Below are positions 3,309 through 10,389 of a DNA stretch of 64,000 bases, piece after piece. The DNA comes from Escherichia coli (GTDB taxonomy: Bacteria > Pseudomonadota > Gammaproteobacteria > Enterobacterales > Enterobacteriaceae), in assembly GCF_022846255.1 (NCBI RefSeq), contig NZ_AP025682.1; one strand, written 5' to 3'. Made by a program: the position numbers and the translations under genes. The notes beneath the pieces are model-generated. The model saw nothing but the letters and a program-made list of their open reading frames with translations. It did not search any database and was not told where the DNA came from. Position 1 is the stretch's first letter. Each line of letters opens with the position of its first letter.

Positions 3309-3371
3309 CGTGTGAACGTTGGCATTACATTGCGCAGTATTTTAAGGACAACACTTAAGGGTTTTCTACAC

Positions 3372-3839
3372 ATGTCAGAACAAAACAACACCGAAATGAC
3401 TTTCCAGATCCAACGTATTTATACCAAGGATATTTCTTTCGAAGCGCCGAACGCGCCGCACGTTTTCCAGAAAGATTGGCAACCAGAAGTTAAACTTGAT
3501 CTGGATACGGCATCTACTCAACTGGCAGATGACGTTTACGAAGTGGTACTGCGTGTTACCGTAACGGCCTCCCTGGGCGAAGAAACCGCGTTCCTGTGTG
3601 AAGTTCAGCAGGGCGGTATTTTCTCCATCGCGGGTATCGAAGGCACCCAGATGGCACATTGCCTGGGCGCATACTGCCCGAACATTCTGTTCCCGTATGC
3701 TCGTGAGTGCATCACCAGCATGGTATCCCGCGGTACATTCCCGCAACTGAACCTTGCGCCGGTTAACTTCGATGCGCTGTTCATGAACTATTTGCAGCAG
3801 CAGGCTGGCGAAGGTACTGAAGAACATCAGGATGCCTGA
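3372..3839 (+). CDS. secB: Protein-export chaperone SecB (155 aa)
   Basis: [32 protein letters not shown]...; the track ORF begins upstream, the internal ATG at 3372 gives the known length. Confidence 0.96.
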
Positions 3840-6359: not shown

Positions 6360-7550
6360 CTATGCCGCATTCCCTTTCGCCATCGGAGCTAGTGCCGCAG
6401 GCAATTCTTTATCCAGCCCTTGCACCAGCGAATCTTGCGTAATTTCGCTAATCGATTTCGCGCCAGTCAGCGTCATCGCCACTTTCATCTCTTTTTCGAT
6501 CAGATTTAGCAGGTTAGCTACACCCGCCTGGCCCGCTGTTGCCAGCGCATACAGGAAAGCACGACCCAGCAGTACGGTGTCGGCACCGAGCGCAATCATA
6601 CGCACGACATCAAGCCCGTTACGTATTCCGCTATCCGCCAGAATGGCGATATCACCTTTCACCGCATCTGCAATAGCGGGCAACGCACGAGCGGAAGAGA
6701 GTACACCGTCCAGCTGGCGGCCACCGTGGTTAGAAACCACAATCCCATCAGCACCAAAACGTACTGCATCGCGCGCATCTTCCGGATCGAGGATCCCTTT
6801 GATCACCATCGGGCCATCCCAGAAATCGCGGATCCACTCAAGGTCTTTCCATGAGATGGACGGATCGAAGTTATTCCCCAGCCAGCCGATGTAATCTTCC
6901 AGTCCGGTCGGTTTGCCGAGATAAGCTGAGATATTACCTAAATCATGCGGACGACCGTTCAGGCCCACATCCCACGCCCATTGCGGATGCGTCACCGCCT
7001 GCAAATAGCGGCGCATTGCCGCGTTCGGGCCGCTCATCCCAGAATGCGCATCACGATAACGCGCTCCCGGTGTTGGCATATCCACGGTGAAAACCAGTGT
7101 CGAACAACCCGCTGCTTTTGCTCGCTCCAGTGCGTTACGCATAAAGCCGCGATCGCGCAGCACATAAAGCTGGAACCACATCGGACGTTTGATAGCCGGA
7201 GCCACTTCTTCAATCGGGCAAACGGAAACCGTCGAGAGAGTAAACGGAATGCCATGCGCATCCGCTGCTTTGGCAGCCTGAACTTCGCCGCGTCGCGCAT
7301 ACATGCCACACAAACCTACCGGACCTAGCGCCACCGGCATCGACAATTTCTCATTAAACAGCGTCGTTTCCAGGCTTAAGTCAGACATGTTTTTCAGAAT
7401 ACGCTGGCGCAGCGCCACTTCTGACAAATCTTCCACGTTGCGGCGCAGCGTGTATTCAGAATATGCACCCCCATCCATATAGTGGAACAGGAACGGCGGC
7501 AGAATGCGTTGCGCTGCGGCGCGATAATCGCTGGCTGCGGAAATAATCAT
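6360..7550 (-). CDS. lldD: L-lactate dehydrogenase, FMN-dependent (396 aa)
   Basis: [38 protein letters not shown]...; last gene of lldPRD. Confidence 0.97.
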
Positions 7551-8323
7551 GCGTTTTTCTCCCTCGAATGCTCATTATGGTCACCAGGCAGGCGGGTAAT
7601 GCGTGCATGGCGAGCCTGATCTTCATCGAATCGTTTCATGGTGGTGTGAACAAAGCTAAGGTGCGCCATCATTGCTTTACGCGCCCCGTCAGCATCACCG
7701 GCAAAAATGGCGTCAATGACTGCCTGATGTTGTTCGGTCAGCTGTGAAAAAACCGGGGGTACCAGATACATCCGCTGGCGGCTATGCTTCACGGAGGATT
7801 GCAGGACATCGAAGAAACCGCGCATGGTTTGCAGCAGCACGATGTTATGTGAGGCTTCGGCAATCGCCAGATGAAAACGAACGTCCGCTTGTGAGGCGAG
7901 ATCCGGGTCTTCACTTAGCGTTGCTTCAAAGCAAAGCTGAATCTTTTCTTTTTCGCCAGGTGTGGCGCGCATTGCCGCATGCCACGCGGTGCTGGCTTCA
8001 ATGGCGTAGCGGGCTTCCAGAATATCGAAACTGTAATCCGGATCATCGGCCATCAGCGTTTTCAGCGGCTGGACGATGTTTTGCTCCGACCATGTGTCAT
8101 GACGCCAGCGAATAAACGTCCCGCCGCCACGTCGACTGAGCAGCACACCTTCGCTTACCAGTTTCGCCAGCGCCTCGCGCAGTGAATTTCTCGACACGCC
8201 GAGTTGCATCGCCAGTTGACGTTCAGCGGGCAACTTCATGCCCGCTTCCAGGTTTTTTTCATCAATCAGCGCCCGCACACGATCGGCAACCTCGTCTGAC
8301 AGGCGTCTGGGTAAAACAATCAT
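7547..8323 (-). CDS. lldR: GntR-family L-lactate regulator LldR (258 aa)
   Basis: [55 protein letters not shown]...; start set at the internal ATG for the known length; overlaps the lldP stop by 1 nt and the lldD start by 4 nt. Confidence 0.93.
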
Positions 8324-9978
8324 TAAGGAATCATCCACGTTAAGACATAGGCCTGAAGCGTGGTGATCACGCCCACCATACAGGTGAAGATCAGGCTGTG
8401 TTTGACAGTAAAGCGGAACAAATCAGACTCTTTGCCCACCAGGCCTACCGCCGCACAGGCGATAGCGATAGATTGCGGAGAGATCATTTTGCCGGTGACA
8501 CCACCGGTGGTGTTGGCAGCAACCAGCAACAGGTCAGAAACGCCAATTTGTTGTGCGGCGGTAGCCTGCAAAGCGGCAAACAAAGCATTAGATGACGTAT
8601 CCGACCCGGTCAGGAATACCCCAAGCCAGCCGAGGAACGGCGAGAAGAAGGTGAATGCATGACCGGTGTGCGCCAGTGCCAGCGCCAGTGTTGATGACAA
8701 ACCGGAATAGTTCGAGATAAAGGCGAACGCCAGCACCATACCGATGGAGTAGATAGGCAGAGCCAGTTCTTTCAGCGTGCTGCCGAAGGTGCTGATAGCG
8801 TCAGATGGTTTCATCTTCAGCCAGACAATCGAGAGCAGGGCAGCAAAAAGAATGGCGGTACCGGTGGCAGAGAACCAGTCAAACTTAAACACGGCGGCAT
8901 ACGCTGTCGCTTCGCTGACCACTGGCGGCATACGGGCAACCAGTTTATCGAGGTACGGCACCGGAATGTTGATCACCCACTCATACAGCGCACCGCCTGA
9001 AGCGAACAGGGCTTTAAACGGCGGGATACTCCACAGCGTTACGGTGGCGGTCAGGAACAGAAACGGTGTCCAGGCGCGCAGCACCTGACCTGCCGTGTAA
9101 CCTGTGTGAGCCAGCGTCATATCAACCTGTGACGCCCCCAAGTCACCGAAGCGGAATACGCGCACTGGTTGCCAGCGTTTGAGGAACAGCGTCAGGCAGA
9201 GCAGTGATACCAGCGAAGAGATAATGTCTGGCAGTTCCGGCCCAATGAAGTTAGAGCTGAGGTATTGAGCAATGGCAAACGAACCACCTGCAACCACGAC
9301 CGCAGGCCACGTCTCTTTGATACCGCGCCAACCGTCCATAATCGCCATGATCCAGAACAGCACGATAATGGTCATAAACGGCAGCTGACGCCCCACCATC
9401 TGACCAATCTCAAAGCTGTCGATGCCTGTTACCTGCCCGGCGACCAGAATCGGAATACCCATCGCGCCAAATGCCACTGGTGCGGTGTTAACAATCAGGC
9501 ACAGTCCGGCGGCGTAGAGTGGTTTAAAGCCCAGACCGACCAGCAATGCGGCGGTAATTGCTACCGGTGCGCCAAAGCCTGCGGCTCCTTCAAGGAAAGC
9601 GCCGAAACAGAAACCGACGATCAGCATTTGCAGGCGCTGGTCAGGGGTTATCGAAAGAATAGACGAGCGAATGATGTCAAACTGCCCGGTTTTCACCGAG
9701 ATCTTATAGACGAACACCGCTGCAATAATGATCCACGCGATGGGCCACAACCCGTAGAAGAAGCCATAAACCACCGAGGCCAGCGCGTTAGCGACCGGCA
9801 TTTTATAGAACAGCAAAGCCACGGCAAGGGCGATTGCCACCGTCCATGAGGCGGCGACGTATCCTTTCAGTTTGAGCTTAATCAGCGCAAAGAAGAAAAA
9901 CAGGATGGGAAGCGATGCTATCAGGCTGGAAAGCCAGATATTCCCGGCGGGATCGTAGTTTTGTTGCCAGAGATTCAT
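8323..9978 (-). CDS. lldP: L-lactate permease (551 aa)
   Basis: [40 protein letters not shown]...; multi-pass membrane protein; start chosen for the known length. Confidence 0.95.
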
Positions 9979-10176
9979 TGCAGGTCTCCTGCAGTCCACA
10001 CACGCCGTGTAATGAGTCTGTTGCTCATCTCCTTGTCACACGTTGTGTAAAAGTGGCACTGCCAATTGTGTTGTGTAGGGATAATGACAATGGATAGTTA
10101 ACTAAATGTTATGCATTAGCAACATTGATGTGAGTTTTAATTGGGGAATTGTGAACCAGAGGTCAGATAAGCGAAG

Positions 10177-10193
10177 AATTGGTAGGGCCAATT
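10177..10193. promoter_or_regulatory. Candidate LldR/PdhR-type operator in the lldP promoter region
   Basis: Inverted repeat aattggtagggccaatt (AATTGG-N5-CCAATT), resembling the FadR-subfamily GntR operator consensus AATTGGT-N3-ACCAATT; about 200 bp upstream of the lldP start. Confidence 0.5.
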
Positions 10194-10217
10194 CTGGGAG
10201 AGGGGTAATGAAGAAAA

Positions 10218-10243
10218 GGGCAATTCCCATCAGAGAATTGCCC
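10218..10243. promoter_or_regulatory. Second palindrome in the lldP upstream region (possible second operator)
   Basis: gggcaattc-N8-gaattgccc inverted repeat; function inferred from position only. Confidence 0.3.
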
Positions 10244-10269
10244 TCAGATTGTTGATCTGGTGCGCCTTA

Positions 10270-10362
10270 TCTTGCCGGATGCGGCGTGAACGCCTTATCC
10301 GGCCTACAGGGTAGTGCTGAATCACCCCGTAGGCCTGATAAGCGTAGCGCATCAGGCAATGT
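10270..10362. repeat. Pair of REP elements (BIME-like) between the adhesin 3' end and the lldP promoter
   Basis: gccggatgcggcgtgaacgccttatccggcctaca followed by an inverted copy, gtaggcctgataagcgtagcgcatcaggcaatg. Confidence 0.85.
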
Positions 10363-10389
10363 GGCGTTTACCCATTTGTTAATGGATCA

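Follow-up and report, generated by a model that had tools for sequence, protein, structure and literature searches.

Upstream of lldP, the first gene of the Escherichia coli lactate operon lldPRD, the stretch of DNA analysed here (64 kb, hereafter the window) contains a 67-bp interval, 10177-10243, with two palindromes, and the question raised by this locus is what each of them does. The original prediction was that both are operators for the lactate regulator LldR, left undisturbed when an adhesin island was inserted between yibL and lldP. Both palindromes were confirmed in the sequence. Palindrome 1 is AATTGGTAGGGCCAATT on the window strand at 10177-10193, and its dyad extends to AGAATTGG/CCAATTCT, at 10175-10195. 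Palindrome 2 is GGGCAATTC-N8-GAATTGCCC at 10218-10243, and its arms (10217-10226, 10235-10244) are perfect over 10 nt. The palindromes are separated by 24 nt, not by the 25 bp that had been given. We consider it very probable that the interval consists of two unrelated signals, the terminator of the adhesin gene upaG and the LldR operator O1, which abut at a boundary between transcription units.

The gene context of the palindromes had been read correctly. The three genes of the operon, lldP (8323-9978), lldR (7547-8323) and lldD (6360-7550), all lie on the minus strand, and "upstream of lldP" corresponds to coordinates above 9978. Their identity was confirmed by NCBIfam scores: lldP and lldD exceeded the cut-offs of equivalog or exception models, and lldR matched the LldR equivalog with 498 bits against a cut-off of 311. 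The RefSeq annotation of near-identical genomes also supports the assignment of lldP. The gene for the cognate regulator, lldR, is intact and lies downstream of lldP. The closest complete genome is that of UPEC 26-1, with 99.3% identity across 9900-10500.

On the lldP-sense strand, palindrome 1 is a 17-bp dyad, AATTGGCCCTACCAATT, which matches the operator pattern AATTGG-N5-CCAATT with no mismatches and is identical at 17 of 17 positions to the K-12 17-mer. When one mismatch was allowed, this pattern occurred twice in the 64 kb, against an expectation of 0.31, and the two occurrences, separated by 126 bp, both belong to the lldP leader. The comparison set comprised 80 LldP-encoding loci of other Enterobacteriaceae species, and a weight matrix was built from 76 non-Escherichia loci only. 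Palindrome 1 gave the top matrix score in the window (25.1 bits).

The spacer between yibL and lldP is the strongest LldR peak in genomic SELEX, and the consensus of the LldR box is AAnTGGTCnGACCAnTT (Anzai et al. 2023, PMC10272880). Two LldR boxes are given for this spacer, AAtTGGcCctACCAaTT and AAgTGGcactgCCAaTT; they are stated to match the pair of sites reported by Aguilera et al. 2008, and the O1 17-mer was scored 12/14 to the LldR box (PMC10272880). The first 17-mer, O1, is also quoted as required for LldR binding (PMC3582500), and comparison with the literature showed that palindrome 1 is identical to the K-12 box that shifts with purified LldR. The same 17-mer is a PdhR box with a score of 13/14, and the level of lldPRD mRNA rose 3.3-fold in a pdhR mutant (PMC7660256). 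PdhR belongs to the FadR subfamily of GntR regulators and has the box AATTGGTnnnACCAATT, and O1 is among its genomic-SELEX targets; the primary regulator at lldPRD is nevertheless LldR, occupancy by PdhR being cross-regulation, and the second LldR operator, O2, is the poorer PdhR match.

Palindrome 1 had been predicted to fit the operator of LldR and PdhR as members of the FadR subfamily, and it proved to be, base for base, the published box of both regulators. Comparison with published LldR sites and a matrix scan, both of which had been suggested as checks, gave an exact match and the score reported above. Judged by this identity, palindrome 1 is the known LldR/PdhR operator O1 of lldPRD, and by extension from K-12 both LldR and PdhR would be expected to bind it in this strain.

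The second LldR operator of the window is not palindrome 2. It lies outside the interval, at 10051-10067, where the DNA reads AAGTGGCACTGCCAATT on the window strand and AATTGGCAGTGCCACTT on the sense strand, with one mismatch to the operator pattern. This site, O2, is identical to that of K-12 and is the second box listed in Table 1 of PMC10272880. It had the second-best matrix score in the window, 21.8 bits, the next best being 14.5 bits. The original prediction overlooked this site and assigned its role to palindrome 2; of the mapped LldR operators, O1 is where it had been placed, but O2 is elsewhere in the lldP leader. Measured from start to start, O1 and O2 are 126 bp apart, equal to 12 helical turns. 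This distance fits the looping model, in which both LldR dimers lie on one face of the helix. A model in which O1 and O2 mediate looping and activation has been published (PMC5412874, PMC8689689), with the -35 and -10 elements and an ArcA operator located between the two sites, from +1 to -80 (PMC8689689). The biosensor papers PMC8827060 and PMC6227772, like these two, present the model without operator sequences, and PMC6957213, on gonococcal lctP, has no bearing on the E. coli sites.

The operator pair is highly conserved. Each of the 80 Enterobacteriaceae loci has two boxes upstream of lldP. Their starts are 126 bp apart in 54 of the 76 non-Escherichia loci and 125 bp apart in 18, and the rest fall within 123-127 bp; leaders that are 30 bp shorter make no exception. 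The TGG...CCA core of the operator was invariant, and the outer positions drifted independently, with no compensatory change. This is the pattern expected of a protein-binding site and not of an RNA stem.

Relative to K-12, the operators themselves show no difference: both 17-mers are identical, the spacing is likewise 126 bp, the distances to the lldP ATG are equal (-215 and -89), and lldR is found downstream in both. The flanking leader, in contrast, differs by about 9%, with an indel of 6-7 bp between the terminator and O1, and the upstream neighbour is upaG here and yibL in K-12. Of 5426 complete E. coli genomes, 5420 have a single copy of the 277-bp leader that contains O1, O2 and the terminator (9979-10255). 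The leader of the window is only about 91% identical to that of most E. coli, and O1 and O2 are unchanged. The allele in the window is uncommon; identity of at least 99% was observed in only 42 of the 5420 genomes, and 4933 fell in the band of 90-95%. The differences cluster between the terminator and O1, where the indel lies, and close to the ATG.

O1 reportedly extends from -105 to -89 and O2 from +22 to +38, relative to a transcription start that is said to lie 110 bp before the ATG. These coordinates, which we take to be those mapped by Aguilera in 2008, fit the window exactly if +1 is placed at 10088, with O1 at 10177-10193 and O2 at 10051-10067. A promoter scan found no sigma-70 consensus in 9900-10500, and the core promoter is thus not placed independently of this alignment. 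GTTAACTAAATGTTA (10097-10111) is located between the operators and overlies the inferred core promoter. It has one mismatch to GTTAATTAAATGTTA, which we assume to be the direct-repeat consensus of ArcA and which was used to call the box; 0.17 matches would be expected at up to two mismatches. No part of the leader is better conserved over 22 genera than the block around this site, and the site may function as an ArcA box.

Some other short motifs were seen in the course of these scans. TTCACA occurs on the sense strand at 10150-10155, roughly at -62 to -67 relative to the inferred start, and an alignment of 22 genera showed no variation in its TCACA pentamer. (T)CACA occurs again some 22 nt downstream, where it is less conserved. 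The TCACA at 10150-10155 has no inverted TGTGA partner, and there is no obvious CRP site. Far from the leader, the matrix gave 14.2 bits to AATTGGTTGTGCGAATA (15868-15884), which resembles the LldR box weakly, with two mismatches, and precedes the first gene of the adhesin module by about 120 bp. We rejected it as an LldR box, since matches of this quality are at chance level in the window (4 at up to two mismatches, against 4.3 expected).

With up to three mismatches allowed, palindrome 2 still had no second match in the window, and none in 100 shuffles. Inspection of the sequence together with a terminator scan showed that it is part of a stem-loop on the minus strand at 10216-10245, GAGGGCAATTCTC-TGAT-GGGAATTGCCCTT, followed by the T-tract TTTTCTTCATTA at 10206-10217. 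The stem has 13 pairs, six of them GC, and is closed by a loop of 4 nt and followed by the tail TTCTTCATTA (minus strand; TTTTCTTC). The minus strand is the sense strand of both upaG and lldP. This hairpin was the only terminator-like site found in 9900-10500. The minus-strand RNA folds with -20.9 kcal/mol (z = -5.4), and none of 200 shuffled sequences was as stable; on the plus strand the same hairpin has -15.3 kcal/mol. It is located 145 nt past the upaG stop codon (10390), and before O1 and the promoter.

Natural variation of the hairpin also points to the minus strand. The orthologous K-12 stem-loop is identical at 27 of 30 bases, with GAGGATT in place of the GGGAATT found here. The two differences in the stem exchange a Watson-Crick pair and a G-U pair, so that pairing is kept only in minus-strand RNA. 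Among six variants of the hairpin, the sense strand was more stable in four, equally stable in two and less stable in none. In the adhesin-bearing loci of Citrobacter braakii, C. youngae and Enterobacter wuhouensis, a comparison resting on individual folds showed a different hairpin and T-tract in the same place, immediately past the adhesin stop codon, and the C. youngae hairpin contains two G-U pairs on the sense strand.

The K-12 orthologue is known as the yibL terminator. A Term-seq 3′ end has been mapped downstream of yibL, and the element terminates transcription in a single-round assay in vitro (TERMITe paper, PMC12207403). The yibL template in supplement file 2 of that paper reads ...AAGGGCAATTCTCTGATGAGGATTGCCCTTTTCT(T)TACC..., and also ...CTAAGGGCAATTCTCTGATGAGGATTGCCCTTTTCT(T)TACCAGAC..., where the bracketed base is the marked 3′ end (PMC12207403). 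The Term-seq end of K-12, GCCCTTTTCT(T)T, falls in the T-tract of the yibL-sense template. The two terminators are orthologous; they share the T-tract and fall in one distance class relative to O1, but the hairpin follows upaG by 145 nt here and follows yibL in K-12. By homology with K-12, the 3′ end of the RNA made from the window should lie at about 10211, 18 nt before O1. Taking its fold, its position and its K-12 orthologue together, palindrome 2 is the predicted stem of a Rho-independent terminator that ends the transcript of the adhesin gene. The K-12 hairpin differs at 3 of 30 bases, and we infer from it that the window allele would terminate as well.

Other readings of the two palindromes were weighed against this combination of a terminator and an operator. 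It is extremely unlikely that both are LldR operators and form the O1/O2 pair of lldPRD. Both are perfect dyads upstream of lldP, and the arms of palindrome 2 hold CAATT and AATTG, which resemble the outer LldR half-site. These pentamers are everted, however, with CAATT...AATTG in place of AATTGG...CCAATT, and the invariant TGG/CCA core is missing; the best score to the LldR matrix in 10200-10260 was -7.9 bits, compared with 25.1 for O1 and 21.8 for O2. The published second LldR box is at 10051-10067. Furthermore, palindrome 2 is absent from many genera that have no adhesin and retain O1 and O2, and its K-12 orthologue is a validated terminator. On these grounds the proposal that palindrome 2 is an LldR operator was abandoned. 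A DNA target of a different dimeric protein, or a hotspot for recombination or insertion, would be in keeping with the perfect 10-bp arms and with an IS200C copy inserted at palindrome 2 in one E. coli strain, but this reading is almost certainly wrong: variation among E. coli lineages breaks the DNA dyad and keeps the RNA pairing by means of G-U, the hairpin sequence is wholly different between genera while its form with a T-tract is kept, and the K-12 orthologue terminates in vitro with RNA polymerase alone.

The third reading concerns Rfam family RF02055 (STnc380), which maps to this genomic site and forms its two main stems from the O1 dyad and the hairpin of the adhesin terminator. The two palindromes would then be hairpins of a plus-strand sRNA that lies antisense to both upaG and lldP, starts at about 10152 in the lldP control region and ends at the second hairpin. 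RF02055 matches 10152-10253 (+) over its full length with 26.2 bits (E about 0.002) and pairs exactly the two dyads. At the orthologous sites of C. braakii and C. youngae it scored 108.7 and 101.8 bits, above the gathering threshold of 60, and the Citrobacter hairpin, perfectly palindromic, has TTTGATGT after it on the plus-equivalent strand, which makes bidirectional termination conceivable. Against this, the cmscan score in the window is far under the gathering threshold, and the stem formed by O1 has an invariant TGG/CCA core and outer positions that vary independently and without compensation, only 9 of 28 variants having complementary bases at positions 1 and 17. The equivalent box O2, 126 bp away, has no hairpin partner. 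The G-U pairs that hairpin 2 forms on the opposite strand become A-C mismatches on the Rfam strand, and cmscan flags non-canonical pairs in locus L072. On the plus strand of the window the stem is not followed by a T-run, the scan detected no promoter-like site on either strand, and in K-12 the mapped 3′ end is in the T-tract of the yibL-sense template. We judge this reading highly unlikely. A search of the literature found no publication describing expression of STnc380. The matches lie at 10152-10253 (+) of the window, at 9722-9828 (-) of locus L017 and at 8421-8528 (-) of locus L072.

The RF02055 model is on the strand opposite to the terminator, and the observed variation fits an operator and a sense-strand terminator and not a structured antisense RNA. 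This suggests that STnc380 may be an artefact, in which the operator dyad and the terminator were modelled as RNA stems. That STnc380 is a real plus-strand transcript, with a divergent start in the lldP control region, passage through LldR-occupied O1 and a stop at a bidirectional terminator, seems very doubtful. If it were true, lactate sensing would also gate an antisense RNA beside the adhesin gene.

The terminator and operator O1 meet at the edge of an adhesin module. The gene that ends at the terminator (10390-15021, minus strand) encodes a trimeric autotransporter adhesin of the UpaG/EhaG type with 1543 amino acids and the Pfam domains ESPR, YadA_head, YadA_stalk and YadA_anchor. At this position other E. 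coli carry genes annotated as upaG, ehaG or YadA-like. The first gene of the module (15065-15748, minus strand) encodes a SadB-like inner-membrane lipoprotein of 227 amino acids. It had no Pfam or NCBIfam match, and matched PDB 4c47, "inner membrane lipoprotein", with E = 1.4e-66; we take 4c47 to be SadB, and the gene is named accordingly. A lipoprotein signal (LLVGC) is present in this ORF. Wherever the module was found, the sadB-like gene accompanies the adhesin. Beyond it lies yibL (16310-16669, minus strand; NCBIfam YibL equivalog, 187.6 bits), which directly precedes lldP in most Enterobacteriaceae, K-12 included. The stretch from yibL to the terminator thus consists of an AT-rich promoter region, the sadB-like gene and the adhesin gene. 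The predicted separation of yibL from lldP by an adhesin island was confirmed, the module of sadB-like and UpaG-type genes measuring about 6 kb.

Two REP elements, forming a BIME, are found at 10260-10360 on the minus strand, in the 3′ untranslated region of upaG between its stop codon and the terminator, and contain the inverted repeats I1, I2 and I5. Sequences of this kind are present in tens of copies per E. coli genome. At 10260-10388 there were also sub-threshold matches to naRNA4, a REP-derived Rfam family (39.5 and 22.9 bits, gathering threshold 59.5).

Of 5426 complete E. coli genomes, at least 3614 carry the 3′ end of the adhesin gene beside lldP. Among the sampled loci from outside Escherichia, only three have the two genes of the module at this place, and in most others yibL abuts lldP. 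The lack of the module from most genera fits an old insertion. K-12 does not have the module, but some of the REP cluster is still there, as is a hairpin of the adhesin type, and its sequence diverges from the window immediately past the yibL stop codon (window 10245-16310 against 3340-3451 of locus L001). As K-12 keeps the adhesin terminator and REP sequences, its present state looks like the result of a secondary deletion of about 6 kb, and the K-12 yibL terminator appears to be a relic of a deleted adhesin operon. A search of the window with the 11 nt at the K-12 deletion junction, GAACACAGTAT, gave nothing meaningful. In the window, no canonical terminator was found after yibL. By eye, GCTCCTGC...GCAGGAGC followed by CTGTTTC is a weak candidate. 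The idea of an inserted island fits the many genera that do not have it, but the island-free state of K-12 seems to have arisen later, by deletion. The idea that lactate regulation was not disrupted stood without change, as O1, O2 and their spacing are intact in all arrangements. The regulatory architecture as a whole is likewise intact beside the adhesin module.

Other elements were occasionally seen at the position of the hairpin. In E. coli PRO_A-1028-6W-A_ESBL (locus L083, 1717-2600), an IS200C element has entered the spacer of yibL and lldP where the hairpin would be, and O1 and the rest of the leader are intact. In two cryptic-clade Escherichia sp., E1V33 and MOD1-EC7003 (loci L003 and L006), the place of the hairpin is taken by a GC-rich, BoxC-like repeat (...CCCCTTTGGGGAGAGGGTTAGGGTGAGGGG...). 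This repeat is about 110 nt upstream of O1, and recurs there in several Enterobacter and Pluralibacter loci.

With a terminator and an operator side by side, the junction would be expected to work as follows. Polymerase on the sadB-like/upaG unit would, once past upaG, transcribe the two REP elements, then the 13-bp, GC-rich hairpin and its U-tract, and the RNA would be released at about 10211, short of the lactate operator by 18 nt. In K-12, which does not carry the adhesin, this element ends the yibL transcript. The terminator may in this way shield the lldPRD control region from read-through, and such an insulating role is what its position suggests. On the other side of the boundary, a dimer of LldR, a regulator of the GntR/FadR type, would bind O1, and a second dimer would bind O2 on the other side of the promoter. 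According to the published model, the two dimers would interact when lactate is absent, forming a DNA loop that represses the promoter; with L-lactate the contact at O2 would be lost, and LldR bound at O1 would activate lldPRD. PdhR could occupy O1 as well, and a putative ArcA box is located between the operators.

O1 and the terminator are both already known, and neither is new to the field. Beyond correct annotation, the result is of little importance: the LldR operators are 126 bp apart and not 24, and the palindrome adjacent to O1 is to be annotated as a terminator. There are two by-products, the K-12 yibL terminator as an apparent leftover of an adhesin operon, and STnc380 as what seems to be a wrong-strand model of the operator and terminator junction. 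For the biology of the organism, the adhesin module brings its own terminator, which would end transcription 18 nt before the operator, and this strain, which carries the adhesin, has an unchanged lactate-responsive control region, one that many biosensors reuse.
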